64,000 nt of DNA from an uncultured Actinomycetes bacterium. Its GTDB lineage: Bacteria; Actinomycetota; Actinomycetes; Mycobacteriales; Jatrophihabitantaceae. The stretch lies in assembly GCA_963708805.1 (NCBI GenBank), contig CAVPUA010000003.1:750455-814454 (forward strand). The letters are read 5' to 3'. The position numbers and the translations under genes were made by a program. Numbering within the stretch: the stretch's first letter is position 1; each line of letters begins with the position of its first letter. Of this stretch, positions 4,654 through 47,107 are shown piece by piece. The notes below the pieces were generated by a model. The model was not told where the DNA came from. It did no database searches and saw only the letters and a list, made by a program, of their open reading frames with translations.

Positions 4654-5350
4654 TCAGTCACCGAGACCGTTGCGCCAGGCCCAGGCGACCAGCCCCGGAC
4701 GGCCGTCGACATCGAGCTTGGACAGCACGTGGTTGAGGTGCGTCTTCACCGTGGCCTCGCTGACCACCAGCCGCCGGGCGATCTGCTGATTGGTCAGCCC
4801 CTCGGCGACCAGCCGGACGACCTCCACCTCGCGCCGGGTCAGCCCGTCGGGCTCGTCGCCGGACGGATCGTGGCCCAGCGAGCCCGGCGAGCCGGCGAGC
4901 GGAGCCCGGCGAGCCCGCTGAGCCCGCCGGGGATGCAGGGCCCTCCCGCAGGAGTTCGACCAACCGCCGCTGGACCGTCTCGTCGAGCACCGTCCGCCCG
5001 GCAGCCACCTCGCCGATCGCCGCGGCGAGCGCCTCGCTCGAGGCGTCCTTGGTGAGATACCCGGCCGCGCCCGCCCGCAGAGCAGGCAGGATCGCGTCGT
5101 CGTCGGCGAACGTCGTCAAGATCAGCACGCGCGTCTCGCCGCCGACGGCGGCCGCGACCTGTGCCCCGTCCAGGCCGGGCATCCGCAGGTCGCACAACAG
5201 CACGTCGGGTCGCAGCGACCGGGTCAGCCGCACGGCCTCGTCGCCGTCGACCGCGGCGCCGACGACCTCGAGGCCGTCATGCGCCGACAACAGCAGGACG
5301 AGCCCGTCGCGCACGACCGCCTGGTCGTCGGCGACGAGGACGCGGATCAC
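4654..5350 (-). pseudogene. NarL/LuxR-family response regulator, frame interrupted in linker
   Basis: The receiver domain (VIRVLVADDQ, DVLLCDLRMPGLDG) lies in track ORF 4658..6451. The LuxR HTH (LTRREVEVVRLVAEGLTNQQIARRLVVSEATVKTHLNHVLSKL, stop 4654-4656) is in another frame. The 697-nt length is not a multiple of 3, and the shift lies in the GC-rich imperfect repeat at about 4875-4930. Confidence 0.8.
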
Positions 5351-6486
5351 GGGGTCACCACCGGAAGCGTCAACTCGACGAGCCAGCCGCCGCCTTCCTG
5401 AGGACCGGTGCGCACCTGACCGCCGCAGTCGGCCACGCGCTTGGCCATCCCGGCCAGCCCCGTGCCGCTGCCCTGTCCGGTGACCGGCGAGTGGCCGGCG
5501 GCCGGCCCGAGGTCGCCGATCCGCACAACGAGGCCGTCCGTCCAGTCCAGCGCGACGACGACGGGGGAGCCGGGCGCGTACCGGGCCGCGTTGGTCAGCG
5601 ACTCCTGGACGGCGCGGTAGGCCGCCTCGCCGCCGGCGTCGGACACTGCGCCGGGCGTTCCCGACACCTCGAACCGGGCGTTGCCGGGGTAGCGCTCGAC
5701 CAGCGCCGGGATCGCGTCGACGCCGAGGCCGCCAGGATCGCGCAGTGCCCCGACCGCCGAGCGCGCCTCGATCAGCCCGTCCCGCGCGAGTTCGGCGGCG
5801 CGATCGAGCGGGGCCAGCACCTCGGGGCCGACGTCGGCCTTGGCGGCGACGGCCCGGATGGCCTGCAGCTGGAGCGACAAGCCAGCCAGGCTGTGGGCGA
5901 GCACGTCGTGCATGTCGCGCGCGATCCGGCCGCGCTCCTGGGCCGCGGCGGCCCGCGCCTCGGCCGCCCGGCTGGCCTCCAACTCGATCAGCAGCGCGCG
6001 CGCCCGGTCGCGTTCGACCACGAGCTGCTGGCGTTCGGCCACCCGTTGATAGAGCACAGGCACGGCGAGTCCGGCCAGCAGTCCGGCGATGCTGTGCGAC
6101 GCCCAGCCGACCGTCGCGCCGAACAGGATCGCTGCGCCGATCATCAGGGCCCGGCTCAGCTGCTTGGACGGAATCGAGGCCAGCCGGCCGACCGCAATGA
6201 CGAACGGGACGTAGCCCAGCCCGTTCGGTGCGGCCAGGATCGCGCCGAGACCCGCTGCGCAGACGACCACGATCGCGGTTGTGCGCAGGCGGTCGTCGTC
6301 GGCCGCGGTGCGCCACATCGCCACGGAGGCGATCACCATGAGCGCTCCGGCGGTGATCCGCTGCGCGACGCCCTCCGCCTGGTAGACGGTCGCGCCGTCG
6401 ACGGCCACCCACGCGATGATCGACCACCACCAAGGCAACGAGGTGAGCCATCGATCGAAGCCCGGCTGGGTCGTCTCAGTCGTCAT
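5347..6486 (-). CDS. sensor histidine kinase (HisKA_3 / NarX-DesK type)
   Basis: H-box MHDVLAHSLAGL, ATPase boxes ESLTNAARYA and GSGTGLAGM, and several N-terminal TM helices. I chose the start at MTTETTQ (ATG 6486). Its TGA overlaps the GTG of the response regulator. Confidence 0.85.
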   Translation of the reverse strand: MTTETTQPGFDRWLTSLPWWWSIIAWVAVDGATVYQAEGVAQRITAGALMVIASVAMWRTAADDDRLRTTAIVVVCAAGLGAILAAPNGLGYVPFVIAVGRLASIPSKQLSRALMIGAAILFGATVGWASHSIAGLLAGLAVPVLYQRVAERQQLVVERDRARALLIELEASRAAEARAAAAQERGRIARDMHDVLAHSLAGLSLQLQAIRAVAAKADVGPEVLAPLDRAAELARDGLIEARSAVGALRDPGGLGVDAIPALVERYPGNARFEVSGTPGAVSDAGGEAAYRAVQESLTNAARYAPGSPVVVALDWTDGLVVRIGDLGPAAGHSPVTGQGSGTGLAGMAKRVADCGGQVRTGPQEGGGWLVELTLPVVTP

Positions 6487-8863: not shown

Positions 8864-8870
8864 CAGGTGG

Positions 8871-11322: not shown

Positions 11323-11920
11323 CGACGTCCATTCAACGCCACGAAAGTCGAGCTCAGGGCAGCCAGCGCCTGCGGGATGCGCCAGGCGTCGCGATCGCGC
11401 GGGCCGACGATGTTGCTGATCGCGCGCACCTCGCCGAACTGGACACCGGCCCCGCTGGCGGCCGCGGCCACTCCCGCGCCCTCCATCGCCTCGGCCACGG
11501 CGTCCGGGAACCGTTCGAGCAGGGCCTGGGCGGTGGACGCCCGGCCGGTGACCGTGCTCACGGTCAGGATCGTCCCGAGGCGCAGCCCGAACGCGGTTCC
11601 CAGCGTCGGCTCGTAGGCCGAGCGCGGCCGAAGCCGAGGGCCTCGAGCGGGACGAATCGATCGCCGTCCGCGGCTCCGAGGTCGGCGAACACGATCGAGG
11701 ACGCGGCGACGACCGACCCGATCTCGACGCCGGGGAACCCGCCGCCGATGCCGGCGCTGAGGACCCGGTCGTACGAGCCGGTGGACAGGGCCCGGGCGGT
11801 GGACGCGGCGGACTCGGCCGGTCCGACGCCGCCGATGATCACGTCGGCGTCGTTGCCGAGCGATGGCCCGATCGCGTCGCGTTCGGCCGCGACCGCGGTG
11901 ACGACCAGCAGCCGGCTCAC
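11319..11920 (-). pseudogene. mqnB: futalosine hydrolase MqnB, one frame break near 11616-11620
   Basis: The N-terminal part (LLVVTAVAAERDAI...SAGIGGGF) lies in ORF 11564..12385. The C-terminal part (TVTGRASTAQ...EAMEGAGVAAAA...GEVRAISNIVG) lies in ORF 11319..11561. The 602-nt length is not a multiple of 3. Confidence 0.75.
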
Positions 11921-12385
11921 GCGCGTAGACGGACGACCTTGGCGATCCAGGTCGCGGTGTCCTTGCCGCCCGACTCCTGGCGAACGATCAAGTAGTACTG
12001 AGCCGCTGGCGTAGGGCACGACGACCCGCGTGCTGTGCTCGTTGCTGATCGAGCCCGACGACGCGCCGTCGACCTGCAACTGGGTGAACTTCTGGTCGGT
12101 GTCCTTCGGTGGCGGCGACCACCGACCACGTCTCGGCCGCGACCTGGCGCGGGACGTCGACCAGCATGCTGGTGCCGGGCCTGGCCTTGATCGAGGACAC
12201 CGGGCTCGAGGTGTCGACGCGGCAGTGCTGGACGTCGAAGCAGTACGTCTGCGGGCGGACGACCGACGGTGGTGCTGCCGGACAGGAACGTGATGCTCGG
12301 GGGTCGGCTTGTCGCACGCGGTCAGGACGGTGGCGATCGCGGCGACGCCGAGGGCGGCTGCGGCCAGACGGACGGGGCGCGGCAT
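11917..12385 (-). pseudogene. exported lipoprotein (Rv0875c/DUF2771-like), at least 3 frame breaks
   Basis: The signal peptide with lipobox LTAC, the middle (PQTYCFDVQHCRVDTSSPVSSIKARPGTSMLVDVPRQVAAETW) and the C-terminus (YYLIVRQESGGKDTATWIAKVVRLRA) lie in three different frames. The stop overlaps the mqnB GTG (GTGA). Confidence 0.55.
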
Positions 12386-12421: not shown

Positions 12422-14169
12422 CTAGAACGGTGAGGGGCCGCTGGCGAGGTTACCGGGCGTATCGGGCCACTGCGGCGCCGATGTGGCACGGCTCATCGCG
12501 CGGTTGCGCAGGACCAGGAAGACCGCGACCGCGGCCCCGACGGCCCCACTGATCCAGAAGCCGAGGCTGCCGTTGTCGCGCCGGCAGCAGGCAGCCGATC
12601 GCCGCGCCCAGGACCCAGGCCAGCTGCAGGAACGTCTCGGACCGGGCGAACGCGCTCGAGCGCAGTGTCTCGGCGACGTCGCGCTGGATCACCGCGTCGA
12701 GAGCGATCTTGCCCAGCGCGTTGGCGGCGGCGACGAGCAGCATGCCGACGACCGCGAAGTCGATGCTGAAGACCAGACCGGTCAGCAGGGCGGCAACGCC
12801 GGCGATGCCGATCGAGAGACTGATCACCCGTTCGGGCCGCGAGAGTTTGAGGCGGGCGCCGATGGCGGTGCCGAGGAAGTTGCCGACGCCGGCCGCGCCG
12901 ACCACCGCGCCCGAGGGCCACCGCCGCCTCGACATCCGTGCCGGGTGGACTCGACCCAGAACGCCATGAAGATCGTCAGGAACCCGGACATGAACCGCAG
13001 CGCCGATTCGCCCTGCAGCGAGATGATCACCGGCGGCAGGTAGCCGCGCTGCGCCCAGGCCATGATCCGCGAGAACGGTGGGACCTTCTCCTGGACGCGT
13101 GGCCGGGCGGGTTCCTCGGGATGTCGCTCGGCCGGCTGGGCCGAGTCGACCTGCGCCGGCAGCTTGATCGCGAAGAATCCGCACGCCGCGAACGCGATGG
13201 CGGTGACCCACAGACCGGCTGGCGTCCGAACCGGTGAGCTTGATGACGATGCCGACGAAGCCGCCGCCGATCAGCGCGGCGCCGAGCCCGAAGATCGACA
13301 GTCGCGCGTTGGCCTCGACGAGCGTCATCCCGGGAGGCACCAGCCGAGGACCGGCCGCACTGCGCACCACGCTGTAGGCCTTGGAGAAGACGAGCGACCC
13401 GAGCGCGCACGGATACAGCACCAGCAGGTCGGTCGAGTGCCCGGCCATGATGACCGCCAGGACGGCGCGCCCGGCGGCCGAGCCCGCCATCGCCCACCGC
13501 CGGCCGTGCTGCACCCGATCGAGCGCGGGGCCGATGAACGGGGCGACGACCGCGAACGGGGCCATCGTCACCAGCAGGTAGAGCAGGACATTGCCGCGTT
13601 GGGCGTGCGTCGACGCGCCGAAGAAGACCGTGCTGGCCAGCGCGACGGTGATCATGGCGTCGGTGCCGTAGGACAGCACCTGGTTCCAGATCAGCGCCGT
13701 GAGCCCCGATTCGTGCGCGCCGTTGGCCTTGCTCGCCGCGATCACCTTGCGGGTGACGAGCTTGGCCGCTTTGCCCGTGCCGACCGCGGTCGCCTTGGCC
13801 GCGTGGGTCACGCGATGGGTCTCGCCGGCGGCGGGGGCGGTCGGCGGGGCAGACGTCCCCGCGTGATAGGTCGGCGCACCGAAGCCGTCGTCGGGGCGGG
13901 CCGGCGGGTAGCGGGGCTGGGCGTACTGCGGGGGCGGTGCGTAGGTCCCGGCCGGAGGGTAGGCGGCCGGAGCGGTAGGCAGTCGGCGGGACGTAGGCGG
14001 GTGGGATGTAGGGCGGCGGCGCCGCGTACCCCGGCGGTGGGGGTGCCTGGTACGGCGGCGGGACAGGTGGAGGGGGCGGCGGGACGGCCGGCTGAGCGGT
14101 CTGATGGCTGGTGTGGCCGGACTTGGAGAACCGCCTGCGCGGCGGTCCCTCCCGCTCGTCTCGTGCCAT
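12422..14169 (-). pseudogene. MFS-type membrane protein (Rv0876c-like) with Pro-rich N-terminus, at least 4 frame breaks
   Basis: Start MARDEREGPP (ATG 14169). TM-rich segments are readable in three frames, with switches near 14000, 13235, 12940 and 12570. The reconstructed C-terminus ...GNLASGPSPF ends at TAG 12422-12424. Confidence 0.65.
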
Positions 14170-14219: not shown

Positions 14220-15115
14220 ATGAGTGCCTCCGATCTCGCGGTTTCCGTACCGATTGCGACCGACGACGTGGTGGCCGCCGCGATCGAGCTCGCCCGGGCG
14301 GCCGCCGTCGAGGTCGGGGGCGACACCGTGGGCGAGCATCTCGGCGTGACCGCCGAGGCCGAGCACCTGATGACCCACGCGTTCGCGACATCGCTCACCG
14401 GCTACCGAGGCTGGCACTGGGCGGTGACGCTGGTCCGGGCGAGCGAGTCCGACGAGGTGACCGTCGACGAGGTTGTGCTGCTGCCGGGTGCTTCCGCGCT
14501 GCTCGCGCCGCCGTGGGTCCCCTGGAACGAGCGGATGCGCCCCGGCGATCTGAGCCCGGGCGACCTCGTGCCGACCGCTCCCGACGACGTACGGCTCGCT
14601 CCCGCTTACCGCTGTCCGACGACCCGGCGGTCGAGGAGGTCGCCTTCGAACTCGGAATCGGTCGGGTACGGGTGCTGTCACGCGATGGCCGCCTCGACGC
14701 CGCCGACCGTTGGTACGCCGGCGAGGGCGGCCCCGACACCGCGATGGCCCGGCAAGCTCCGGCGCACTGTGGCACGTGCGGTTTCTACCTGCCGCTGGCC
14801 GGCTCGCTCCAGGCCGGCTTCGGCGCGTGTGGCAACGAACTGTCGAACTCCGACGGGCGCGTGGTCAGCGTCGAGCACGGCTGCGGGGCGCACTCCGAGG
14901 CGGTCGTCGAGGCGCCGTCGCTGGCCGAACTGGTCGGCGACGTCTACGACGACGGCGAGATCATCGAGCTGGCCGAGGTCCCGGACCTGGCCGAGCTGCC
15001 CGAGGTCGTCCAGCCGGACGTGGAACTTCACGTCGAACCAGAGGTCGAGCCGGCCGCCGAGCTGCCTCAGGCCGCAGATTCGGTCGAGGTCACCGAGGTA
15101 TCGGACGCTCCCTGA
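14220..15115 (+). pseudogene. DUF3027 protein (Rv0877-like), one frame break near 14600
   Basis: The N-terminal part is in ORF 14220..15335. The Cys-rich core CGTCGFYLPLAG...FGACGNE...EHGCGAHSE is in ORF 14111..15115. The 896-nt length is not a multiple of 3. Confidence 0.7.
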
Positions 15116-17885: not shown

Positions 17886-18321
17886 ATGGTATCCGTGTCG
17901 ACCGCCGATATCGAACTTGCCGCTGCGCTGCGGCCTTCACTGCTGCGGCTCGTGCGGCTGATCCGTCAGCAGCGGGCCGACATGTCCGTCACGCTCGGGC
18001 AGCTCTCGGCCCTGGCGACGCTGGAGAAGAGCGGCCCGATGAGTGCCGGCGAGCTGGCGTCCTGCGAGCGGGTTCAGCCGCCGACGATGTCGAAGGTGCT
18101 GGCCAGCCTCGAGGAGTCGGGCTACCTGCGGCGCGAGGCGCACCCCACCGACGGCCGGCAGGCGATCATCGTGTTGACCGACGTCCGGGCGCGAGTTGAT
18201 CGAGTCGGAGCGGCGAATCCGGGACGCGTGGTTCAACCAGCAGATCGCCAAGCTCGACACGGACGAGCGCGAGCTGCTGGCCAACGTCGTGCCGATCATC
18301 GACAAGCTGGCGGACCTGTAA
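17886..18321 (+). pseudogene. MarR-family transcriptional regulator, one frame break near 18185
   Basis: Winged-HTH LGQLSALATLEKSGPMSAGELASCERVQPPTMSKVLASLEESGYLRR is in frame 1. The C-terminus GRELIESERRIRDAWFNQQIAKL...IDKLADL ends at TAA 18319-18321 in another frame. Confidence 0.75.
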
Positions 18322-23252: not shown

Positions 23253-24364
<1,112 letters not shown>

Positions 24365-30747: not shown

Positions 30748-30769
30748 TTGATCTAGCGGAAGGCGCGCC

Positions 30770-31923
30770 ATGTTCGGTTATCACGTCCCGGCCCCGGATG
30801 AGGCGATGCTGATCTCGGGCGGCAAGAGTGCGAAGAACTCGGCCGACACCCCGTTCCGCGTCGTCACCGGGCACGGCGCCTTCGTCCTGCCGTTCTTCCG
30901 CAAGGTGCGGTTCCTGACCCTGTCGATGGCCGAGGCCGAGGTCGAGGAGCGCTGCGTCACCAAGCAGGGCATCACCCTGAACGTCCGGGCCGTCATCGCC
31001 TTCAAGGTCGGCAACGACGCCGAGAGCATCGTCAACGCCGGCCAGCGCTTCCTGTCCGACCAGAACCAGATGTCGGTGCTGACCGGCCGGATCTTCGCCG
31101 GCCACCTGCGCTCGATCATCGGCTCGATGACGGTCGAAGAGATCGTCACCGAGCGGCAGAAGCTGGCCACCGAGGTCCTCGACGGTTCGAAGGAGGAGAT
31201 GGTCAAGATCGGCCTGATCGTCGACGCTCTGCAGATCCAGTCGATCGACGACGGCGACCTCGGCTACATCGCCAACATGGCCGCTGCCGCACAACGCCGC
31301 GATCCAGCGCCAGGCTCAGATCTCGCAGTCGCAGGCCCGCCAGCAGTCGGCCGAGGCCGAGCAGGAGTCCTTGCGCAAGCAGGCCGAGTACGCCCGGCGA
31401 GACGGCGATCGTCCAGGCGCAGTACAAGGCCGAGGTCGACCAGGCCCAGGCAGACGGCGGCCCAGGCCGGCCCGCTCGCCGCCGCCCAGGCCCAGCAGGC
31501 GGTGCTGGCCGAGCAGGCGCTCGTCGCCCAGAAGAACGCCGACCTGCGCCAGCAGCAGCTGGTCGCCGAGGTCATCAAGCCGGCCGAGGCCGAGGCCGAG
31601 CGGGTCCGCGTGCTGGCCAAGGCCGACGCCGAGCGCATCCGGATCCAGGCCGAGGCGGCCGCGTCGCACAACCGGGTGGCGCTCGACCGGATGCTCATCG
31701 ACCAGCTGCCGCAGATCGTGCGCGAGGCCTCGGCCGGGCTGCAGGGCGCGAACGTCAACATCCTCAACGGCGCTACCGGACTCGGCGAGATGGCGGCCAG
31801 CCTGGTCGGGCAGGGGCTGACGATCTTCGAGTCGATCCGCGGCAACCTGGGCCAGCCGGACGAGGACATCCCCGACGAGCCCGAGCACCCCGCGCTGGGC
31901 AGCGGCGCCCGGCGGAGGCCTGA
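30770..31923 (+). pseudogene. flotillin / SPFH (band 7) family protein, at least 3-4 frame breaks; 3' end approximate
   Basis: The N-terminal SPFH domain ([18 protein letters not shown]...) is followed by an Ala/Gln-rich coiled coil readable in three frames between 31285 and 31455. The probable end is AEA-TGA (31921-31923), out of frame with the N-terminus. Confidence 0.7.
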
Positions 31924-31996: not shown

Positions 31997-34272
<2,276 letters not shown>

Positions 34273-34377
34273 GCTGGTCCGTGGACGGATGTGGCCACCA
34301 TCTGGCCATATCCGTCCAAGCGCGTCGCTGTGGACAACTCTCGGCATGGCTGGGCGCACTTCCGGCAGCCTTCGTGA

Positions 34378-35262: not shown

Positions 35263-35290
35263 CCACGGTGTGGCCAGATTCGTCCAGCAG

Positions 35291-35867: not shown

Positions 35868-37739
35868 GCCGCGTTCAGCACCGGTCGCAGCGCGTCGAGC
35901 ACAGCCGGGTCCTCGATCGTCGACGGGACGGTCGGCTCACGTCCATCGGCGATCTCGCGCATGGTCTTGCGCAGGATCTTGCCCGAGCGGGTCTTGGGCA
36001 GCCCGTTCACGATCGAGACGTCGCGAAACGCCGCGACCGGGCCGATCTCGCGGCGGACGGCGGCGACCAGCTCGCTCTGCAGGGTCGATCTCGTCGATGT
36101 CGGCGCCGAGCTTGAGCACCACGAGCGCGCGGGGCAGCTGTCCCTTGAGCGGGTCGGCGACGCCGATCACCGCGCACTCGGCTACCGCGGGATGGGCGGC
36201 GACGACCGCCTCGATCGAGCCGGTCGACAGGCGGTGTCCGGCCACGTTGATCACGTCGTCGGTGCGTCCCATGACGAACAGGTAGCCGTCCTCGTCGAAG
36301 TAGCCGCCGTCGCCGCTGAGGTAGAAGCCGGGGTATCGGTGCAGGTACGAGCTCTCGAACCACTCGTCGTCGCCCCACAGGGTGAGCAGCGTTCCGGGCG
36401 GCAGCGGCAGCTGTGATCGCGATCGCGCCGTCGGCACCCGGCGGCCGAGGTGCCGCCGGCGTCGTCGAGCACCTGGACGTCGTAGCCGGGCATCGGCACG
36501 GTCGGCGAGCCGGCCTTGATCGGCAGTGACTCGAGTCCGCGCGGGTTGGCGCAGATCGCCCAGCCGGTCTCGGTCTGCCACCAGTGATCGACGACCGGCA
36601 CGTCGCAGCAGGTCCGACGCCCAGTGGAACGTCTCGGGGTCGAGGCGCTCACCGGCCAGGAACAGCGTCCGCAGGCTCGAGGTCGGTCGACGACCAGCTC
36701 GCCCTGCGGGTCGAGCCGCTTGATCGCGCGCAGCGCGGTGGGAGCGGTGAACAGCGCCTTGACCCCGTGCTCGGCGACCACCCGCCAGAACGCACCCGCG
36801 TCGGGCGTGCCGACCGGCTTGCCCTCGTAGAGGACCGTCGTCGCGCCGGCGAGCAGCGGCGCGTAGACGATGTAGGAGTGCCCGACGACCCAGCCGATGT
36901 CCGAGGCCGTCCAGAACACGTCGTCGGGGCCGATGTCGTAGATGTTGCGCAGCGACCACAGCAGCGCCACCGCGTGCCCACCGTTGTCGCGCACGACGCC
37001 CTTCGGACGGCCGGTCGTCCCGGACGTGTAGAGGATGTAGAGCGGATCGGTCGCCGCGACCGGCAACGCAGTCGGCCGGTTCGGCGGCGGCCATCGCATC
37101 GCGCCAGTCGAGATCGCGCGGGCCCAGCTCGGCGGTCAGCTCCGGCCGCTGGAAGACGATCACCCGCCGCGGCTGATGCGTCGGTGATCGCCAGCGCCTC
37201 GTCGACGATCGGCTTGTAGGCGATCACCCGGCCCGGTTCGATGCCGCACGACGCGATCACCAGCACGGCCGGCCGGGCGTCCTCGATGCGGCTGGCCAGC
37301 TCCGGCGCGGCGAACCCACCGAACACGACCGAGTGGATCGCGCCGAGACGGGCACAGGCGAGCATCGCGATGATCGCCTCGGGAATCATCGGCATGTAGA
37401 TGATCACGCGGTCGCCGGGCTCGACGCCCTCGTTGCGCAGGGCACCGGCGAAGCGCTCGACCGCGGCCAGCAGCTCGGCGTAGGTCAGTGTGCGTGACGC
37501 CGGTGTAAGCGCTGTGATGGATCAACGCCCGATGATCACCGCGTCCGGCCTCGACGTGCCGGTCGAGTGCGTTGTAGGCGGTGTTCAGCCGGCCGTCCGG
37601 GAACCAGCGGTACAGCGGCGCGCGCGAGGGGTCCAGTGCGCGCGTCGGCTTGCGTCTCCCAATCGACCAGTTCGGCCGCCTCGAGCCAGAAGCCCTCGGG
37701 GTCGTCGAGGCTGCGCCGGAACGCCTCGCGATAGGTCAC
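35868..37739 (-). pseudogene. propionyl/acetyl-CoA synthetase-like (PrpE/Acs family) AMP-forming ligase, about 9 frame breaks
   Basis: Starts VTYREAFRRSLDDPEGFW (its GTG overlaps the upstream stop). YILYTSGTTGRPKG, WQTETG, YLSGDGGYFDEDGYLFVMGRTDDVINVAGHRLS and LPKTRSGKILR are readable only across ORFs 37536.., 37160.., 36649.., 36251.. and 35937... The stop is TGA 35868-35870. Confidence 0.8.
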
Positions 37740-39413
37740 GTCACGACCTCGGCGAAGTGCTCGGCGAACTGCTCCCGCAGCTTGAACTTCAGCACCTTGC
37801 CGCCCACGGTCTCGGGCAGGTTGTCGACGAACACGACGTCCTTCGGGCGTCTCGTAGCCGGCCAGTGACGCGCGGCAGTACGCGATCAGGTCGGCGGCGC
37901 TGGTCTCGTCGCCGTCGCGGCGGATCACGACCGCGGTCACGGCTTCGCCCCAGTACGAGTGCGGCAGGCCGATCACCACGGCCTTCTCGACGGCGGGGTG
38001 CAGGCCGAGCACGGCCTCGACGCGCAGGCTCGACACGTTCTCGCCGCCGGTCTTCACGATGTCCTTGTACCGATCGAGCATCACCCGCAGCCCGTCGTCG
38101 TCGTAGGCGCAGCTGTCGCCGGAGTGGAACCAGCCGAAGCGGAAGGCCTGTCGCGTCGCTGGTTCGTCGCGGTAGTAGCCCGACATCATCGACGGCGAGC
38201 GGTAGACGGCCTCACCGGCGACCCCCGGCGAGTCGATCAGGTCCTCGCCGAACGGATCGAGCACGGTCGAGGCGAGCAGCGGGCTCGGCACGCCGACGTA
38301 GTTCTGCTTGGGTGCGGTGCGCGCGTACAACTCGGGCCACCTGTCGGGCCAGAAGCGGTGGCAGGCGATCGACTCGGTCTGCCCGAAGATCTCGAACACC
38401 AAGAGATCCTCGCCGCAGTGCTGCTTCATCGAGGCCAGCACGGGCGGCGGCAGCGCGGCCCAGCCGTAGACGATCACCCCGAGACTGTGGGCGTCGAGTT
38501 CGGCCCGTTGGGTGAGGACGGCGTCGACGCCGGCCACCATTGCCGGCGCGCCCGCCCACCAGGCCGTGACCTTCTCGGCGTCGATCATCTCCGCGATGCC
38601 GGTGGCGTCGGGGCGGCGGCCGAGCACCAGCGTCCCGCCCGACAGGAACACCGAGTAGGTGAACGGCTGGTCGCCGACGTGATAGATCATCGGCAGGAAG
38701 GTGCCGACCCGCAGGTCGGCCTCGAGCTTCAGACCCCGCGTCAAGGACAGGGCGAAGCCGTACGCCGCCATGTAGCTGCAGGTGTGCGAGATCATCACGC
38801 CCTTGGGCATGGCGGTGGTGCCGGACGTGAAGAGGATCTCCCAGATGTCGTCGCCGTGGATCTCGACGTCGGGCTCGGTCGTCGGCTGATCGCGGACGAA
38901 GTCGGTGAACGAGGCGCTGCCGGGCACCGGGCCGCCACCGATCGTGATCGTCACCGCCACCTCGAGCCCGGTCGTGCCGAACGGACCTTCGGCGCGCGGC
39001 CACAGCTCGGCGTCGACGACGGCCAGCTTGGGCTCGACGAGTTCGATCATGGCCTGGACGAGGTCAGGCGCCATCATCGGATTGATCGGCGCGCAGACGA
39101 GCCCCGCCTTGGCCGCCCCCAGCTTGGTCAGGAATCCCTCGACCGAGTTCTCGCAGAACAGGAGCACCACGTCGCCGTGCTGCAGGCCGCGGGCGAGCAA
39201 CGCGTGTGCGATCTGGTTCGCGAGGTGGTCGGCTTCGCGGTAGGTCAGCCGGCGAAAACGCGGATCCCCGTACGCACCCTCGCGGGCCACGAACGCCTCT
39301 TTGTCGGGGAAGCTCCACGTCATCCGCTCGAGCAGGTCGCCGACGCTGGTGCGCTCCCACCGGTGGACGGCTCGGCGGTGGTGCAAGCTGGTGACATCGA
39401 GTTCGGCGTCCAT
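37736..39413 (-). pseudogene. fatty-acyl-CoA synthetase (FadD-like AMP-binding enzyme), one frame break near 37850
   Basis: I chose the start at MDAELDV (ATG 39413). ILFTSGTTAMPKG, GQTES and GWFHSGDSCAYDDDG are present. The C-terminus KDVVFVDNLPETVGGKVLKFKLRE...EVVT is in another frame with its stop at 37736-37738. Confidence 0.8.
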
Positions 39414-39458
39414 GGGCCTCGCACGTCCTCTCTGACAGTGCCGGCGGTCCGGCCGAAC

Positions 39459-39478
39459 TAGTGACCGGCCATTCACTA
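39459..39478. promoter_or_regulatory. inverted repeat TAGTGA-N8-TCACTA in divergent intergenic region (candidate operator)
   Basis: Perfect 6-bp arms sit in the 188-bp gap between the divergent fadD-like and carboxyltransferase genes. A TetR gene lies in the same cluster. Confidence 0.25.
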
Positions 39479-39601
39479 TGCCGCACACTTTAGGCACCAG
39501 GGAGCCCGCTGGAAAGGGCTGAGGCCGATGAGTAGCCAAAGAAGTGAATAGCGGTTAACGTCTGGACGTCGAGTGAGTCAACGCCACCCGAGGAGGCGCG
39601 C

Positions 39602-41200
39602 GTGTCCGTCCTGCGATCGTCGGTGGACACCTCCAGCGAGACCTACCGGGCCAACCGCGCCGGCCAGCTGGCCGCCATCGCCGCCCTCGACGAGCAACTG
39701 GAACTGGCCCGGGCCGGCGGCGGCGCTCAGTACGCCCAGCGCCACCGGGATCGCGGGAAGCTCTTGGCCCGTGAGCGGATCGAGCTACTCGTCGATCGCG
39801 ACTCGCCGCTGCTGGAGTTGTCGACGCTGGCCGCCTGGGGCACGGAGTTCACGGTCGGCGCGAGCATCGTCACCTGCATCGGAGTCGTGTCCGGCGTCGA
39901 GTGTGTGCTGGTCGCCCACGACCCGACGGTGCGGGGCGGCGCGATGAATCCCTACACGCTGCGCAAGTCGCTGCGCGCGCTCGAGATCGCGCGGCGCAAC
40001 CGGCTGCCGGTGATCAACCTCGTCGAGTCGGGCGGCGCCGATCTGCCGACGCAGTCGGATCTCTTCGTCCCGGCCGGCAAGATCTTTCACGACTTGACCG
40101 AGCTGTCGGCGATGGGCATCCCGACCATCGCGCTCGTGTTCGGCAACTCGACCGCGGGCGGGGCGTACGTCCCTGGCATGTGCGACTACTCGGTGCTCGT
40201 CGACCGGCAGGCCAAGGTCTTCCTCGGCGGCCCGCCGCTGGTGAAGATGGCCACCGGCGAGGAGTCCGACGACGAGTCGTTGGGCGGTGCTGACATGCAC
40301 TCGCGGATCTCGGGGGTGTCGGACTACTTCGCGGTCGACGAGCTCGACTGCATCCGCATCGGGCGCGAGATCCTCGAGACGGTCCGCTGGCGCAAGCTCG
40401 GGCCGGCGCCGAGCCTGCCCGCCGACGAGCCGCTCTACGACCCGGACGAGCTGCTCGGCATCACCTCGGCCGACTTCCGCGTGCCCTTCGATCCGCACGA
40501 GGTCCTGGCCCGGGTCGTGGACGGTTCGCGCTTCTCGGAATACAAGACGCGCTACGGCACGAGCCTGGTGACGGGGTGGGCATCGATCCACGGGTTCCCG
40601 GTCGGCGTGCTCGCCAACGCGCGCGGCGTCCTGTTCAGCGAGGAGGCGAAGAAGGCCAGCGAGTTCATCCTGCTGGCCAACCAGAGCGACACGCCGTTGG
40701 TCTTCCTGCAGAACACCACGGGCTACATGGTCGGCGCCGAATACGAACAGGGCGGCATCATCAAGGACGGCGCGAAGATGATCAACGCCGTGACCAACTC
40801 GGCCGTCCCGCACATCACCATGAACCTGGCCGCCTCCTTCGGCGCGGGTAACTACGGCATGTCCGGCCGTGCGTACGACCCTCGGTTCATGTTCGCCTGG
40901 GCCAACGCGAAGCTGGCGGTCATGGGAGCGGCCCAGCTGGCCGGCGTGATGTCGATCGTCGCCAAGCAATCGGCCGAGTCGAGCGGTCGCCCCTTCGACG
41001 CCGACGCCGACGAGCAGCGACGCCAGGCGATCCAGGCCCAGATCGAGCGGGAGTCGGACTCGTTCTTCGTGAGTGCCCGTCTCTACGACGACGGCGTGAT
41101 CGATCCTCGCGACACCCGTTCGGTGCTGGGGATGTCGTTGTCGGCCGCGCATTCCGCACCGGTCGAGGGGCGCCGCGGCTTCGGCGTCTTCCGGATGTAG
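39602..41200 (+). CDS. acyl-CoA carboxylase carboxyltransferase (beta) subunit, MccB/AtuC/AccD1-like
   Basis: Intact 532 aa. VAHDPTVRGGAM, NLVESGGADLPTQ, GNSTAGGAYVPGM and FLGGPPLVKMATGE match the methylcrotonyl/geranyl-CoA carboxylase beta pattern. Confidence 0.85.
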   Translation: MSVLRSSVDTSSETYRANRAGQLAAIAALDEQLELARAGGGAQYAQRHRDRGKLLARERIELLVDRDSPLLELSTLAAWGTEFTVGASIVTCIGVVSGVECVLVAHDPTVRGGAMNPYTLRKSLRALEIARRNRLPVINLVESGGADLPTQSDLFVPAGKIFHDLTELSAMGIPTIALVFGNSTAGGAYVPGMCDYSVLVDRQAKVFLGGPPLVKMATGEESDDESLGGADMHSRISGVSDYFAVDELDCIRIGREILETVRWRKLGPAPSLPADEPLYDPDELLGITSADFRVPFDPHEVLARVVDGSRFSEYKTRYGTSLVTGWASIHGFPVGVLANARGVLFSEEAKKASEFILLANQSDTPLVFLQNTTGYMVGAEYEQGGIIKDGAKMINAVTNSAVPHITMNLAASFGAGNYGMSGRAYDPRFMFAWANAKLAVMGAAQLAGVMSIVAKQSAESSGRPFDADADEQRRQAIQAQIERESDSFFVSARLYDDGVIDPRDTRSVLGMSLSAAHSAPVEGRRGFGVFRM

Positions 41201-41208
41201 GGGACGCG

Positions 41209-43191
41209 ATGACCGAGTTCACCACGCAGATCACCAAGCTGCTCGTCGCCAACCGCGGCGAGATCGCCTCGCGGGTCTTCCGCACGGCCCGGGCGATGGA
41301 CATCGCGACCGTCGCCGTGTTCTCCGACCCCGACGCGGGGCTGCCGTTCGTGACCGATGCCGACGAGGCGGTCCGGCTGCCGGGCTCGACGCCGGCCGAG
41401 ACCTACCTGCGCATCGACGCGATCCTGGCCGCCGCGGCGGCAACCGGCGCGGACGCGGTCCATCCCGGTTACGGCTTCCTGTCCGAGAACGCCGAGTTCG
41501 CCCGCGCCTGCGCCAAGGCCGGATTGATCTTCGTCGGCCCGACGCCGGAGGCGATCGAGGCGATGGGCTCGAAGATCGCCGCCAAGCGGCTGATGGCCGA
41601 GGCCGGCGTCCCCGTGCTCCCGGGGGCCGTCTTCGAGGACGAGCCCGACGCGGACGCGTTGGTCGAGGCGGCCGATGCCGTCGGGTACCCCGCGCTCGTC
41701 AAGGCGGCCTTCGGCGGTGGTGGTCGCGGGATGCGCATCGTCGCCGGTCCCGAAGCGATCGTCGAAGCGGTGGCCGGAGCCCGGCGCGAGGCCGCGTCGG
41801 CGTTCGGCAACGGCACGGTCTTCCTCGAACGGTTCGTCGAGTCCCCGCGGCACATCGAGGTGCAGATCATGGGCGACCAGCACGGGACGGTCGTCCACCT
41901 CTTCGAGCGTGAGTGCTCGATCCAGCGGCGCTACCAGAAGATCATCGAGGAGGCGCCGTCGCCGGCCGTCGATGATCGGCTCCGCGCCGAGCTGTGCCAG
42001 GCGGCCGTGGCGGCGGGCCGGGCCATCGGCTACGTCGGTGCCGGAACGGTCGAGTTCGTCCTCGACGCGTCGGGCCGGTTCTACTTCCTCGAGGTCAACA
42101 CCCGACTGCAGGTCGAGCACCCGGTCACCGAACTGATCACCGGGCTCGACCTGGTACGGCTGCAGCTCGACGTCGCCTCGGGCCGCCCGCTACCGCCCGA
42201 GGTCACCGGCGCGACGTTCTCGGGGCACGCGATCGAGGCGCGGCTCTACGCCGAGGACGTCCCCGGTGGCTACCTGCCGACCAGCGGCGACGTGATCACC
42301 TTCGACATCGAGGCCGCCGACGGCCTGCGCGTCGACGCCGGCTTCGCGTCGGGAACCCGGGTGAGCACGTTCTATGACTCGATGCTGGCCAAGGTCATCG
42401 GCTTCGGCCCCACCCGCGACGACGCCCGGCGCGTCCTGGCCGGGGCGCTGGACCGGGCTCGCCTGCACGGCGTGGTGACCAACCGCGACCTGCTCGTCGA
42501 GGTGCTGCGCGAGGCCGAGTTCGGTGAGGGACGCATCGACACCGGCTATCTCGAACGACATCCGTTCGCCGGTGGCGGCGACGCGAACGACGTTCACGTG
42601 CTGGCCGTCGCCCTGTCCGGCCAGGCCGAACGGCGACTGGTCGCGCCGGTGCTCTCGACGCTGCCCTCGGGGTGGCGCAACAACCCGAGCGGCCCGCAGC
42701 GCGCGAGCTACGACATCGCGGGCCGGACGGTCGAGGCGAGCTACCGGCTGATCGGCGACCGGGTCTCGGCCGCGGTCGACGGGCGTGAGCTCGAGGCGAC
42801 CGTACGGGCCGCGGCGGCCGATCGAGTCGATCTCGAGGTCGACGGGGTGCGCCGCGTGATCGAGGTGCGCCACGTGGGCAGCACGTTCTACGTCGACAGC
42901 TCGCTCGGGCACGACACCCTCGTCGAGGCCGAGCGCTTCCCCGACCCGTCGGCCGTGGCCCATGCCGGGTCGCTGCTGGCGCCGATGCCCGGGACCGTCG
43001 TCCGCGTCGACGTCGCGGTCGGCGACCACGTCGAGGCGGGTGCGGCTCTCCTGGCCATCGAGGCGATGAAGATGGAGCACTCGATCTTCGCGCCGACCCG
43101 GGGCATCGTCACCGAACTGCCGATCGCCGTCGGCGCCCAGGTCGACAGCGGCTCGGTGCTCGCGGTGCTCGAAGAGGAGGAGTCGCAATGA
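41209..43191 (+). CDS. acyl-CoA carboxylase alpha subunit (biotin carboxylase + BCCP domain)
   Basis: Intact 660 aa with an ATP-grasp biotin carboxylase (HPGYGFLSEN, EVNTRLQVEHPVTE) and a C-terminal LAIEAMKMEH biotinylation motif. Confidence 0.9.
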   Translation: MTEFTTQITKLLVANRGEIASRVFRTARAMDIATVAVFSDPDAGLPFVTDADEAVRLPGSTPAETYLRIDAILAAAAATGADAVHPGYGFLSENAEFARACAKAGLIFVGPTPEAIEAMGSKIAAKRLMAEAGVPVLPGAVFEDEPDADALVEAADAVGYPALVKAAFGGGGRGMRIVAGPEAIVEAVAGARREAASAFGNGTVFLERFVESPRHIEVQIMGDQHGTVVHLFERECSIQRRYQKIIEEAPSPAVDDRLRAELCQAAVAAGRAIGYVGAGTVEFVLDASGRFYFLEVNTRLQVEHPVTELITGLDLVRLQLDVASGRPLPPEVTGATFSGHAIEARLYAEDVPGGYLPTSGDVITFDIEAADGLRVDAGFASGTRVSTFYDSMLAKVIGFGPTRDDARRVLAGALDRARLHGVVTNRDLLVEVLREAEFGEGRIDTGYLERHPFAGGGDANDVHVLAVALSGQAERRLVAPVLSTLPSGWRNNPSGPQRASYDIAGRTVEASYRLIGDRVSAAVDGRELEATVRAAAADRVDLEVDGVRRVIEVRHVGSTFYVDSSLGHDTLVEAERFPDPSAVAHAGSLLAPMPGTVVRVDVAVGDHVEAGAALLAIEAMKMEHSIFAPTRGIVTELPIAVGAQVDSGSVLAVLEEEESQ

Positions 43192-43952
43192 CCGAACCCG
43201 TCCAGTACGACGTGGTCAACGGGGTCGCGTGGTTGACGATCAACCGCCCTGAGGCCCGCAACGCGCTCAGCCTGGCCGTCCGGGACGGCCTGTTCACCGG
43301 GGTGCGCCGCTTCAACGCCGACGACGAGGCGAAGGTGCTGGTACTGACCGGGGCCGGAGACCGGGCCTTCTGTGCCGGTGGTGACCTGAAGGAGATGGCC
43401 GACACCACGTTGCGGGTGCCGCCGATCGACTTCGTCCCGCAGTTCGGCCGCAACATCGAGGTCGAGAAGCCGACGATCGCCGCTGTCAACGGGATCGCCT
43501 ACGGCGGCGGGTTCCTGCTCGCCCAGGACTGCGATCTGTGCGTGGCCGGCGAATCGGCCCGTTTCGCGATCAGCGAGGTCAAGGTCGGGCGGGGTTCGCC
43601 GTGGGCGGCTCCGCTCTCGTGGCTGGTGCCGCCCCGCATCGCCATGGAGATCCTGCTGACCGGAGACCCGCTCACCGCCCAGCGGGCGTACGAGGTCGGC
43701 CTCGTCAACCGGGTGGTGCCCGACGCCGATCTGCGCGACACCGTCCAGGCGCTGGCCGAACGGATCGCCACCAACGCGCCGTTGTCGGTCCGCGCCGCCA
43801 AGCGGACGGCCTACCTGTCGGCCCACTTCGAGCTGACCGACGCCTACGACGAGGCCGAACGGATCTGGGAGCCGGTGTATCTCAGCGCCGACGCCCAGGA
43901 GGGCCCGGCCGCGTTCCGCGACAAACGCACGCCCGTCTGGACGGGCCGCTGA
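43188..43952 (+). CDS. enoyl-CoA hydratase/isomerase family protein
   Basis: Intact 254 aa with the crotonase signature FCAGGDLKE. Overlaps the upstream stop by 4 nt. Confidence 0.85.
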   Translation: MTEPVQYDVVNGVAWLTINRPEARNALSLAVRDGLFTGVRRFNADDEAKVLVLTGAGDRAFCAGGDLKEMADTTLRVPPIDFVPQFGRNIEVEKPTIAAVNGIAYGGGFLLAQDCDLCVAGESARFAISEVKVGRGSPWAAPLSWLVPPRIAMEILLTGDPLTAQRAYEVGLVNRVVPDADLRDTVQALAERIATNAPLSVRAAKRTAYLSAHFELTDAYDEAERIWEPVYLSADAQEGPAAFRDKRTPVWTGR

Positions 43953-44750
43953 TGGCCGCCGACCTGACCGCGCTGATCGACGACCTGGTCGCCGAGAGCG
44001 TCGTGATCGACGAGATCATCACACCGCTGAGCCCCGAGCAGTGGACGCTGGCCCACGCCGGCCGAGGGCTGGACGATCGCCGACCAGGTCAGCCACCTCG
44101 CCTTCTTCGACGAGACCACGCTGCTGTCGCTGACCGACCCGGACCGCTTCCGCATCGAGGCCGACGAGCTGATCGCCGGCGGCATGGACTTTCCCGACCG
44201 CGTCGCCGCCCAGCACCACGACCGGCCTGGCGCCGAGTTGCTGGCCTGGTTCGTCCGCGCGCGCCGCGAACTGATCGAGGGCTACCGGGCCGTCGATCCG
44301 GACGTCCGGCTGCCCTGGTACGGCCCGGGCATGGGGCCGGCCTCGTCGGTCACCGCGCGGATCATGGAGACGTGGGCGCACGGCCAGGACATCGCCGATG
44401 CGCTCGGGGTGACCCGGCCGGTGACGAACCGGCTGCGGCACGTCGCTCACCTCGGGGTGCGCAGCCTGCCCTACAGCTACCGCGTGAACGGGCTGGACGT
44501 GCCGTCCGAGCCGATCCGCGTCGAGGTGGCCGCACCCGACGGCGACACCTGGACGTGGGGTCCGGACGCCGCCGCCGATCGAGTGACGGGGGACGCCCTG
44601 GAGTTCTGCCTCGTCGTCACCCAACGGCGCCACCTCAGCGACACCGCGCTCGCGGTCAGCGGTCCGGTGGCCGAGCAGTGGATCGGCATCGCCCAGGCCT
44701 TCGCCGGCGCGGCCGGTACGGGCCGCAAGCCGAGGGGAGACGCGGGATGA
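43952..44750 (+). pseudogene. DinB/MDMPI-fold protein (TIGR03084-like, tentative), one frame break near 44048
   Basis: MAADLTALIDDLVAES...EQWTL is followed in another frame by PTPAEGWTIADQVSHLAFFDE...METWAHGQDIADALG (ORF 44184..44750). Confidence 0.6.
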
Positions 44751-46155
44751 GATCGGTGCGGATCGGCAACTCCTCCGGTTTCTACGGCGACCGCAACGCG
44801 GCCTCGCTCGAGATGGTCGAGGGTGGCCCGATCGACTTCCTGACCGGCGACTATCTGGCCGAGCTGACGATGTTGATCTTGTGGAAGGCCAGACAGAAGG
44901 ATCCATCGGCCGGCTACGCGCGCTCGGTGCTCGGTCAGCTCGAACAGGTGCTGGGCACCTGCCTCGATCGCGGGATCAAGATCGTCAACAACGCGGGTGG
45001 ACTCAATCCGGCCGGCCTGGCCGAGGAGCTGACCGCCCTGGCCGAACGGCTGGGTCTGCACCCCAAGATCGCCTACCTGACCGGTGACGACCTGCTGCCC
45101 GACCTCGACGCGCTCATCGCCGCCGGCCACGACCTGGCCCATCTCGACACCGGGCGGCCCCTCGCCGAGGCGGGCGGCAAGCCGGTGACGGCCAACGCGT
45201 ATCTGGGCGCGTGGGGCATCGTCGACGCGCTGGGCTCGGGAGCCGACATCGTCGATCTGCCCGCGGGTCACCGACGCCTCGCTCGTCGTCGGGCCGGCCG
45301 CCTGGTGGCACGGCTGGGCCCGCGACGACTTCGACCAGCTGGCCGGCGCCGTGCTGGCCGGCCACGTGATCGAGTGCGGACCGCAGGCCACCGGCGGCAA
45401 CTACTCCTACATCGACGAGATCGTCGATCGTCGCTATCCGGGCTTCCCGATCGCCGAGGTGGCCGGCGACGGCAGCTTCGTGATCACCAAGCACGACGAA
45501 CACCGGCGGTCTGGTCTCGGTCGGCACCGTCACCGCTCAACTGATGTACGAGATCGCCGAGCCGGCGTACGCGAACCCGGACGTCATCGCCCACTTCGAC
45601 ACCGCCCAGCTCGATCAGGTCGGCCCGGACCGCGTGCGGTGCTCGGCCACCATGGGCAGCCCGCCACCGGCCACCACCAAGGTCGCGATCAACTTCGTCG
45701 GCGGCTACCGCAACACGATGACGCTCGTCCTGACCGGTCTCGACATCGAGAAGAAGGCGGCGTGGGCGACCGAGGAACTGTTCGGCATCCTCGGTGGGCG
45801 CGACCAGTTCGGCGAGGTCGACGTGCGGCTGATCCGCTTCGACCGTCCGGACGCGCCGACCAACGAGCAGGCCACCGCGCATCTGCGGATCACGGTCAAG
45901 GACGCCGATCCGCGCAAGGTCGGACGGCGGTTCTCGAACGCGACGATGGAGCTCGCGCTCGGCGGCTACGCCGGGTTCCACACCACGACGCCGCCGTGCG
46001 GCGAGAGCGCGTACGGCGTCTACTGGCCGGCCCTCGTCCCCGCCGACGCGCCCCGGCACACGGTCGTGCGGCCGGACGGCAGCACGAAGTTGATCGCGCC
46101 GACGCCGTCCGGTCCGGTGCGGTACTCGGCGATCGTCCGGCCCGATCGACTATGA
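44747..46155 (+). pseudogene. AtuA-family (DUF1446) acyclic-terpene-utilisation-like protein, 2 frame breaks (about 45255 and about 45505)
   Basis: MRSVRIGNSSGFYGDR...DFLTGDYLAELTM is followed by LAGHVIECGPQATGGNY (ORF 45351..) and then LMYEIAEPAYANPDV... (ORF 45544..46155). The start overlaps the upstream stop (ATGA). Confidence 0.7.
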
Positions 46156-46156
46156 C

Positions 46157-46504
46157 TTGACGATCGAGACACAGCGACTCCCGCTCGGGTCGGTCTGCGC
46201 CGCCCGGTCGGGCGACAAGGGCGGCAACGCCAACATCGGGGTCTGGACGCGAGATGCGGCCGGCTACGAGTGGTTGCGTACGTACCTCACCGTCGATCGC
46301 CTGCGCGAGCTGATCCCCGAGGCGGCCGATCGTCCAGTGCGTCGGTACGAACTGGCGAACCTGAACGCGCTCAACTTCGTCATCGTCGGGCTGCTCGGCG
46401 AGGGGGTCGCCGCCTCGACCCGCTCCGACCCGCAGGCCAAGGGGCTGGGCGAGTACCTGCGGTCGCGACTGGTCGACATCCCCGCGGTACTGGTCAGAGG
46501 CTGA
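46157..46504 (+). CDS. AtuA-associated small protein (DUF4387-like, tentative)
   Basis: Intact 115 aa from TTG 46157, 1 nt after the DUF1446 stop. Carries an AARSGDKGGNANIGVW motif. Confidence 0.55.
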   Translation: MTIETQRLPLGSVCAARSGDKGGNANIGVWTRDAAGYEWLRTYLTVDRLRELIPEAADRPVRRYELANLNALNFVIVGLLGEGVAASTRSDPQAKGLGEYLRSRLVDIPAVLVRG

Positions 46505-46506
46505 AC

Positions 46507-47107
46507 GTGGTCACCCCGACCGAACCGGCGCGCCGGCGCGACCCCGAGCGCCGCCAGCGAATACTGACCGCCGCGGCCGATCTGGTCGCCGAGCGGGGCT
46601 ACCACGACGTCGGCATGATCGAGATCGGCGCCGCGGCGGGCATCACCGGCTCGGCGATCTACCGGCACTTCGGCGGCAAGTCGGCCGTCCTCGTCGCGAT
46701 GTTCGACCGGGTCATCGACAATCTCGGGCGCGAGGCCGAGGAGATCGTGGCGGCCGAGACCGAACCCCGCGAGACACTGCGCCGGCTCGTACAGACGCAG
46801 GTGCAGTTCGTCCTGGACGAACGGACGCTGGCGCAGGTCTATCACCACGAGATCGCCAACCTGCCCGAGGAAGACCGCCACCGGTTGCGACGCAAGCAGC
46901 GGCTCTACATCGAGGAGTGGGTGCACGTCCTCGCCGTGCTGCGCCCGGACGTCAACGACGGGCAGCTTGCGCGCGCTCGTGCACGCATCGATCGGCGCGA
47001 TCCAGTCGCAGTTGTTCTACGAGAGCGGCTTGCCCCGAGGGCAACTCGAGCGGCTCATGTCGTCGGTGGCCGAAGAGGCACTGTTCGTACCGGCGGACGA
47101 AGCGTGA
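46507..47107 (+). pseudogene. TetR/AcrR-family regulator, one frame break near 46970
   Basis: HTH ILTAAADLVAERGYHDVGMIEIGAAAGITGSAIYRHFGGK is in the main frame. The C-terminus ALVHASIGAIQSQLFYESGLPRGQLERLMSSVAEEALFVPADEA is in another frame, and its TGA overlaps the next GTG. Confidence 0.75.

Follow-up and report, generated by a model that had tools for sequence, protein, structure and literature searches.

Are the conserved genes of an uncultured actinomycete really broken in their dozens by single-nucleotide frameshifts, or is it the deposited sequence that is at fault? The question is raised by a stretch of 64,000 nucleotides (hereafter the window; G+C content about 70%) from contig CAVPUA010000003.1 of assembly GCA_963708805.1 (positions 750,455 to 814,454), which derives from an uncultured member of the Jatrophihabitantaceae. 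An initial annotation, made from the letters of the window alone, described about 25 conserved genes between positions 4,654 and 47,107 as broken only by one-nucleotide insertions or deletions (indels), and favoured base-calling or assembly error over decay. Our results lead to the same view. The frame breaks are very probably an insertion-biased artefact of the consensus in the deposited metagenome-assembled genome (MAG), not traces of gene decay, and the genes of the organism are almost certainly intact. Several lines of evidence carry this reading: independent contigs lack the extra bases, other kinds of lesion are absent, the broken genes bear the marks of purifying selection, the spectrum of changes is confined to single nucleotides and biased towards insertions, normally essential genes are among those broken, and related long-read contigs are damaged alike.

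Extent of the frame breaks

Breaks were detected with a purpose-written, frameshift-tolerant protein-to-DNA aligner that was run against intact orthologues from syntenic relatives (here labelled L001-L005, L007, L010, L011, L014, L026, L170 and P0253-P0255). A second, reference-free approach used a frame model built on G+C content by codon position (GC3). Two of the reference sources, L001 (201 kb) and L002/L003 (1.33 Mb), are European Nucleotide Archive (ENA) metagenome contigs with Flye-style names that are syntenic with 0-20 kb and 22-34 kb of the window, and all genes in question are intact there.

By these alignments, 24 genes between positions 4,867 and 46,969 contain about 59 frame breaks in total. 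Every break is exactly 1 nucleotide in size, with 50 extra and 9 missing bases in the window, and every orthologue runs in one frame. The GC3 model agrees, indicating many same-strand frame changes at 11.3-37.8 kb and 43.9-47.1 kb. The events in mqnB, the DUF2771 gene and the transporter of the major facilitator superfamily (MFS) were reproduced with L170 as an additional reference, and those in gabT with P0253-P0255. The breaks, together with one intergenic extra base and one in-frame stop codon, are as follows.

4657..5350, minus strand: response regulator; 1 extra base at 4867-4868; aligns over residues 1-218 of 218 to the L002 orthologue with one +1 shift
11334..11920, minus strand: mqnB (PNP_UDP_1); 1 missing base at 11615-11617; orthologues in L001, L002 and L170 (198 aa, intact)
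11935..12385, minus strand: DUF2771 lipoprotein (Rv0875c-like); 4 extra bases at 11998-99, 12107-09, 12247-62 and 12296-303; L001 and L170 concur
12428..14169, minus strand: MFS transporter; 5 extra bases at 12577, 12909-13, 12933, 13219 and 13973; L001, L002 and L170 concur
14220..14986, plus strand: DUF3027; 1 missing base at 14610-14612; orthologues in L001 and L002
15982..17867, plus strand: pabB-pabC fusion; extra bases at 16298, 17300-05 and 17581-91, missing base at 16859-64; L001 and L002 (637 and 629 aa, intact)
17886..18318, plus strand: MarR; extra base at 18183-84; L001 and L002
18337..19112, plus strand: TrmH/SpoU methylase; extra bases at 18669-70 and 18910-12; L002
19114..19912, minus strand: UbiA prenyltransferase; extra base at 19651-52; L002
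21443..21906, plus strand: SRPBCC/AHSA1; one break near 21608, with the frame moving as it would after loss of a base; Pfam and GC3 model
23256..24364, minus strand: serC; extra G at 23467 and extra C at 24327 (plus-strand letters); direct comparison with L088 and L087
24715, no strand: intergenic extra A; missing from L087 and L088
24807..25470, plus strand: GNAT acetyltransferase; extra C at 25146; L087 has an intact 221-aa gene without this base
25489..26281, minus strand: S-adenosylmethionine-dependent methyltransferase; extra base at 26148; L003 and L005
26333..27321, plus strand: murB; missing base at 26543-45; L003 and L005
27445..28879, plus strand: aldehyde dehydrogenase; extra bases at 27585-86, 27750, 27793-98 and 28516; L003 orthologue
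29160..30497, plus strand: gabT; 6 extra bases at 29227-29, 29364-66, 29587-88, 29883-84, 30267-72 and 30346-48, and 3 missing bases at 29709-11, 29747-48 and 30167-72; six references yield the same nine events
30505..30750, plus strand: NfeD-like small gene; TAG at 30625-30627, where the codon of relatives is TAT or TTC
30770..31906, plus strand: flotillin/Band_7; extra bases at 31285-86, 31399 and 31449-50; L003 and L005
31997..33263, plus strand: ask (aspartate kinase); extra base at 33183; L004
33263..34269, plus strand: asd; two extra bases (or one missing) within 33853-33891; L003 orthologue
35876..37800, minus strand: prpE/acs-like acyl-CoA synthetase; extra bases at 36092, 36413, 36453-55, 36605-06, 37064-66, 37180, 37498-99 and 37655-56, missing base at 36692-94; references L010 (a Streptomyces isolate) and L011
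37754..39413, minus strand: fadD-like ligase; extra base at 37844-48; 15 references concur
43940..44730, plus strand: DinB/MDMPI-fold gene; extra base at 44050-51; 8 references concur
44720..46501, plus strand: atuA; extra bases at 45253-55 and 45498-500 (13 references); a third shift at 46121-23 is doubtful
46505..47092, plus strand: TetR regulator; extra base at 46966-69; 9 references concur

Most of the counts per gene given initially stand, including nine for gabT and eight to nine for prpE, and so does the claim that the NfeD-like gene holds the only in-frame stop. The UbiA gene has one break rather than two, the lipoprotein gene four rather than three and the MFS gene five rather than four. 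For two genes the count depends on how neighbouring shifts are read: the same-direction pairs at 33853/33888 in asd and 36413/36454 in prpE may each represent a single event of opposite sign, which gives one or two events for asd and eight or nine for prpE. The lipoprotein gene is the least certain of the set (weak similarity, 81/145). The MFS transporter aligns with 464 of 574 residues identical and no stop. In the SRPBCC gene, two overlapping open reading frames (ORFs) match positions 1-38 and 33-124 of the Pfam AHSA1 profile, and the GC3 model switches frame at 21608/9.

Both of the breaks proposed for atuA are confirmed. The third shift was not counted as a certain break, since the gene is naturally split there in relatives; several of them switch frame at this position, and the frame change at 46121 is probably such a split and not an error. 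In the window, as in the close relatives L012 and L027, the ferredoxin-like C-terminal domain of AtuA has an ORF of its own, and it is fused to AtuA in the more distant L010, L011 and L007.

Independent contigs lack the extra bases

The damage is a property of the deposited sequence. ORF 30770-33232, which arises only through the combination of three shifts in flotillin and one in ask, encodes an 820-aa flotillin-ask read-through product that is on record exactly (P0250) from a contig of 3,032,181 bp held by the National Center for Biotechnology Information (NCBI) and ENA. The 40-aa truncated NfeD product (P0378) is on record from the same contig. Since both exact products are in the deposit, the breaks were not introduced after deposition. 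Also recorded from this contig is a product 100% identical to the helicase-associated protein of the window (795 aa, 6476-8863, intact), whose next relatives have 76-81% identity and whose more distant named matches are actinobacteria of the Jatrophihabitantaceae/Pseudonocardiales type. The deposit is a single contig without protein names, as are related Microflora Danica Nanopore MAG contigs, and it is probably a long-read MAG.

Two contigs from other assemblies are close enough for comparison base by base. L087, a k-mer-based Logan contig of 1,726 bp from ENA run ERR11523676, is 99.1% identical to window positions 24115-25843, and L088, a 2,008-bp contig from the Joint Genome Institute (JGI), is 96.4% identical to 23093-25103. 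Gaps occur in these alignments solely where the window has one extra base, at 25146 (the GNAT break), 24715 (intergenic), and 24327 and 23467 (the serC breaks). L088 lacks both serC extra bases and encodes an intact SerC of 369 aa, while L087 lacks the one at 24327. At the sites covered, the lesions are absent from an independently assembled population that is the same or nearly identical. The extra A at 24715 indicates in addition that extra bases are not restricted to coding DNA. A further Logan contig from ERR11523676, L086, matches 34206-35379 with 3 mismatches and 0 gaps, and the product of the intact gene at 34378-35262 occurs exactly in the Logan assembly of this run.

Judged from the differing sites, L087 and L088 stem from strains other than that of the window, within the same population or one closely related to it. 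Of the single-base differences between the window and L087, 9 of 12 are at codon position 3 and most are synonymous. A three-way comparison over 24115-25103 yields 11 sites private to the window (9 of them substitutions) and 1 private to L087. We considered whether the window-private substitutions are errors as well, and rejected this view because they are mostly synonymous and hence look like strain differences. The asymmetry between the two branches may reflect a mosaic Logan contig or recombination.

Comparable contigs were sought for the most heavily broken genes. A protein search with the repaired gabT gave a best match of 92%, too distant for comparison at the level of bases; the best of the matches listed for gabT and prpE in JGI metagenome contigs was 82%, and four further contigs (L169-L172) are 77-88% identical and likewise too distant.

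Clustering of the breaks

The initial annotation had called the density of breaks very uneven, which is borne out by a dispersion index of 4.0 in 2-kb bins over the window (p = 5e-13). The events fall into a bad zone that extends over about 26 kb (11.6-37.9 kb), a second, smaller patch at 44.05-46.97 kb (about 3 kb) and a stray site at 4867, with no gene-specific hot spots. The bad zone holds 54 events, or 2.05 per kb, and is itself only mildly over-dispersed and near Poisson (index 1.6, p = 0.046). Event-free stretches measure 17.0 kb (47-64 kb), 6.7 kb (4.9-11.6 kb), 6.2 kb (37.85-44.05 kb) and 4.9 kb (0-4.87 kb). No break was found in the three regions first listed as free of them, on the basis of orthologues for 5.3-11.3 kb and 39.6-43.9 kb and of Pfam matches for 48-64 kb. 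More specifically, 0-4.87 kb and 5.35-11.3 kb are clean against L001/L002 orthologues, and 37.85-44.05 kb and 47.1-48.1 kb are clean against accB-syntenic relatives. Two clean stretches border the damaged genes.

37850..44049, no strand: clean stretch with most of fadD, acyl-CoA carboxylase beta and alpha subunits and enoyl-CoA hydratase; no robust shifts against 15 references
47107..64000, no strand: clean right-hand part; no split domains; luciferase-like gene intact against 5 references

Exact products of the first stretch are on public record. The call for 48-64 kb is based on Pfam matches in the listed single ORFs, most of them near end to end; partial matches there concern globin (51-114/117), GPP34 (4-163/201), MFS_1 and Big_3_5. 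A transposase gene of the IS481 family (rve_3, HTH_23, LZ_Tnp_IS481) is located at 48117-49088 on the minus strand, some 1 kb past the rightmost break, and could mark a junction in the assembly graph or a change of supporting reads.

The unevenness had been offered as a caveat to the error reading. It is no argument against error, since the rate of consensus errors differs from place to place along a metagenome contig. Under the artefact reading, the consensus would carry single-base errors at about 2 per kb, roughly 85% of them spurious extra bases and 15% dropped bases, and each error within a gene would shift the frame such that gene callers report fragments or fusions. The patchiness would then follow from local differences in consensus support, for which depth, a mixture of co-occurring strains and unpolished stretches are candidate causes.

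The second of these causes can be spelled out as a special case of the artefact. Strains diverged by 0.3-0.8% might have been collapsed during assembly, with the polisher adding spurious bases at sites of difference between them, and such a process would explain the patchiness. A second strain is present in run ERR11523676, and the window diverges by 0.75% from L087 where breaks are dense but by 0.26% from L086 in the break-free 34206-35379, a contrast that hints at a role for strain mixture but consists of two data points. On the other hand, the four directly observed extra bases are at least 11 nucleotides from the nearest strain difference, for which reason we rejected the idea that insertions fall on strain-variant sites, and the window genome need not derive from ERR11523676. 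We therefore treat corruption by strain mixture as a possible cause, though one we would not bet on.

Coding content between the breaks

The artefact reading and real, recent pseudogenisation make different demands on the sequence between the breaks. The latter would require one strain with about 59 true frameshifts in about 25 adjacent genes, in a redundant or dead tract or in a reductive lineage. In its favour, the breaks are present in the deposited sequence, their contiguous clustering could fit a locally relaxed tract, and the window strain is distinct from those of L087 and L088, such that these contigs leave some room for strain-private mutations. There is also a likeness to the pseudogenes of Mycobacterium leprae, in that many neighbouring conserved genes are disrupted, some with mycobacterial counterparts (the Rv0875c/Rv0876c-like genes).

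The lesions themselves do not look like decay. Reductive decay brings stop codons, deletions of many sizes and relaxed substitution while sparing essential genes, whereas the window has only one-nucleotide events, no larger indels and a single nonsense codon. The genes murB, asd, ask, serC and pabBC are normally essential. All of them are broken here by orthologue alignment, including murB, asd, ask and serC, which the initial annotation had singled out, and no second copy of these four was seen within the window.

Greedy repair, which applied one single-base edit per step, restored 22 of the 23 genes processed, which then align along practically the entire orthologue and contain no in-frame stop; the exception is the MFS transporter, in which one or two shifts remain, including that at 12577. 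The expectation that coding content is kept between the breaks thus holds. The identity of repaired genes is at least as high as that of intact neighbours, for example 454/477 for the aldehyde dehydrogenase (L003), 394/444 for gabT and 416/422 for ask (L004), compared to 76-79% for the intact helicase-associated protein. Five repaired proteins have near end-to-end Pfam domain matches:

gabT: Aminotran_3 (8-402/403) in one piece at 432 bits, where the raw ORFs hold only slices of 30-60 residues
prpE-like protein: ACAS_N, AMP-binding (6-375/384) and AMP-binding_C
atuA: AtuA (1-435/437) and AtuA_ferredoxin
DinB-fold protein: MDMPI_N (7-140/140)
flotillin: Band_7 (12-174/176)

Conserved residues are equally untouched. 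Despite its nine breaks, repaired gabT shows 0 deviations at the 252 columns that are invariant in 120 homologues, and repaired ask shows 0 at 283 invariant columns; the intact helicase-associated protein, used as a control, likewise has none at its own invariant columns. Had gabT decayed neutrally, with substitutions outnumbering indels at least five to one, some 18 or more deviations would be expected, and the probability of finding none is about 1e-8 or less. An excess of substitution errors in the broken genes had been expected but is not seen in these counts. Between serC of the window and L088, 36 of the 45 differing sites are at codon position 3, and 34 of the changes are synonymous compared to 11 that are non-synonymous. 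From this predominance of synonymous and third-position differences relative to L087 and L088, we infer that the broken genes are evolving under purifying selection. With neither mixed lesions nor relaxed selection in evidence, real pseudogenisation is very improbable.

Spectrum and sequence context of the breaks

The split of 50 extra to 9 missing bases (about 85% extra) departs strongly from parity (p = 5e-8). Natural one-nucleotide indels arise mostly from slippage in runs of a base, and bacterial genomes show a bias towards deletion. Concentration in homopolymers, which is typical of errors from Nanopore, 454 and Ion Torrent sequencing, was tested by comparing the localised intervals with random ones, and the homopolymer hypothesis was rejected: 23 of the 49 localised extra-base intervals touch a run of at least two, where random intervals are expected to yield 29.4 +/- 3.3. 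Three of the four directly observed extra bases are flanked by unlike bases. The initial placement of indels at short runs of G or C is therefore not supported. Of its two examples, the serC indel assigned to GGG at 23470-23472 is the extra G at 23467, between two C's, and the mqnB indel assigned to GGCC at 11616-11619 is a missing base placed at 11615-11617; two such cases are at chance level in DNA with 70% G+C.

An excess of insertions without association with runs argues against real mutations, and the extra A at 24715 also counts against pseudogenisation. The extra bases might nevertheless be real in one strain, if a tract of about 30 kb had recently been hit by a localised, insertion-biased process that avoids homopolymers, or if it were a dead or redundant copy, with substitutions not yet accrued. 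We consider this an even slimmer chance than pseudogenisation of the ordinary kind.

By eye, no shared motif was evident in the contexts of the breaks. GATC was included among the motifs looked for because a Dam-like N6-adenine methyltransferase (MethyltransfD12) is encoded at 19950-21005 on the minus strand. This gene is intact amid the bad zone and has the same position in L002; its neighbours are UbiA and ArsR genes, and no restriction partner was identified beside it.

Programmed recoding, by which ribosomal frameshifting, transcriptional slippage or RNA editing would bypass the breaks much as the +1 and -1 frameshifts of prfB, dnaX and insertion sequence elements yield an intact protein across a frame change, finds its sole support in the coding information fully kept between the breaks and is effectively refuted by their absence from L087 and L088, since programmed sites are conserved in orthologues and carry a slippery or stop motif, whereas the breaks are private to one contig and conserved in no orthologue (the 99.1%-identical contig included), all orthologues are single-frame, inspection found no common slippery motif or stop codon at the sites, the shifts run in both directions and non-coding DNA, too, contains one such extra base.

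Comparison with related long-read assemblies

Indel errors in long-read (Nanopore or PacBio) assemblies, as recognised by the IDEEL test and repaired by proovframe or Homopolish (PMC9262707), provide the closest parallel to the artefact reading. They are likewise single-base events that fragment or fuse conserved genes, their density is tied to local support, and frameshift-causing indels are documented in such assemblies below about 40x coverage (PMC9262707). For the Microflora Danica MAGs, the input was Nanopore data alone, and assembly with Flye was followed by a single round of Medaka polishing (PMC12313526).

A genome scan with the carboxylase beta subunit as query returned at least 80 loci, many of them syntenic over 35.9-48 kb. 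The 80 listed loci comprise Microflora Danica Nanopore MAG contigs, short-read MAG contigs and isolates, and six conserved proteins were aligned to them as a control. The Nanopore MAG contigs contain 24 frameshifts in 161 kb (17 without the natural atuA split), compared to 4 in 373 kb for short-read and isolate contigs, a rate about tenfold lower. Thus, short-read contigs of relatives are without such damage for the most part while related Nanopore contigs are damaged too, one of them (L035) with 7 frameshifts in about 4 kb. In four of the Microflora Danica Nanopore contigs (L035, L019, L029 and L012), frameshifts are found in the carboxylase alpha subunit, fadD and atuA.

Several points weigh against the artefact reading. 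Direct confirmation reaches just 3 of the roughly 59 frame breaks (23467, 24327 and 25146), together with the intergenic 24715. The errors are inferred, not seen in reads. L087 and L088, which differ from the window at mostly synonymous sites, represent other strains and not the same genome, and the window genome may have been assembled from reads other than those of ERR11523676. The profile is not that of textbook Nanopore error either: documented Nanopore errors are concentrated in homopolymers and include many deletions, whereas about 85% of the events in the window are insertions, they lie outside runs, and substitution errors are close to zero. Moreover, the ratio of extra to missing bases in the related Nanopore MAG contigs is balanced (9:8) and differs from the 50:9 of the window (Fisher p = 0.017), which means that the same pipeline cannot be claimed for the window. 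Of these, the absence of a link to homopolymers weakens the case for typical Nanopore homopolymer error and not that for an artefact as such.

Consequences for annotation

The breaks presumably have no biological meaning, as the organism itself almost certainly has intact versions of the genes. Their importance is as a warning to annotators that a public genome in a single 3-Mb contig can carry about 2 frame-breaking errors per kb across tens of kb. Automatic annotation of such sequence yields fused and fragmented proteins, and the flotillin-ask chimera has already entered protein collections. False pseudogenes are to be foreseen in the pathways for lysine and threonine (ask, asd), serine (serC), folate (pabBC), menaquinone (mqnB) and the cell wall (murB). 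Because the errors are clustered, quality metrics computed over the whole genome could in principle overlook bad patches on the scale of kilobases. Polishers that focus on homopolymers would leave errors of this insertion-biased, non-run profile unrepaired.

Other features of the window

Gene order between gabT and def varies among the relatives. An NfeD-flotillin pair is located between gabT and ask in the window, L003 and L005. The pair is absent from L004, a JGI contig whose ask protein is 99% identical, and ask directly follows gabT there. Likewise, the gene at 34378-35262 (plus strand), which is DUF559/AbiEi-like, is interposed between asd and def, whereas def directly follows asd in L003.

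Two loci in the clean right-hand part also merit mention. Within 57320-60045 on the minus strand, a gene for a bacterial nitric-oxide synthase oxygenase (Pfam NO_synthase, 7-358/362, 491 bits) is found directly downstream of a flavohaemoglobin-like gene with globin, FAD_binding_6 and NAD_binding_1 domains. These neighbours may constitute a pairing of a nitric-oxide synthase with its partner reductase in an uncultured actinobacterium. Finally, a WhiB domain (residues 130-197) and, in frame with it, a DUF3253 domain (284-359) are encoded by a 365-aa ORF at 49190-50287 on the minus strand, which could represent one gene or two.

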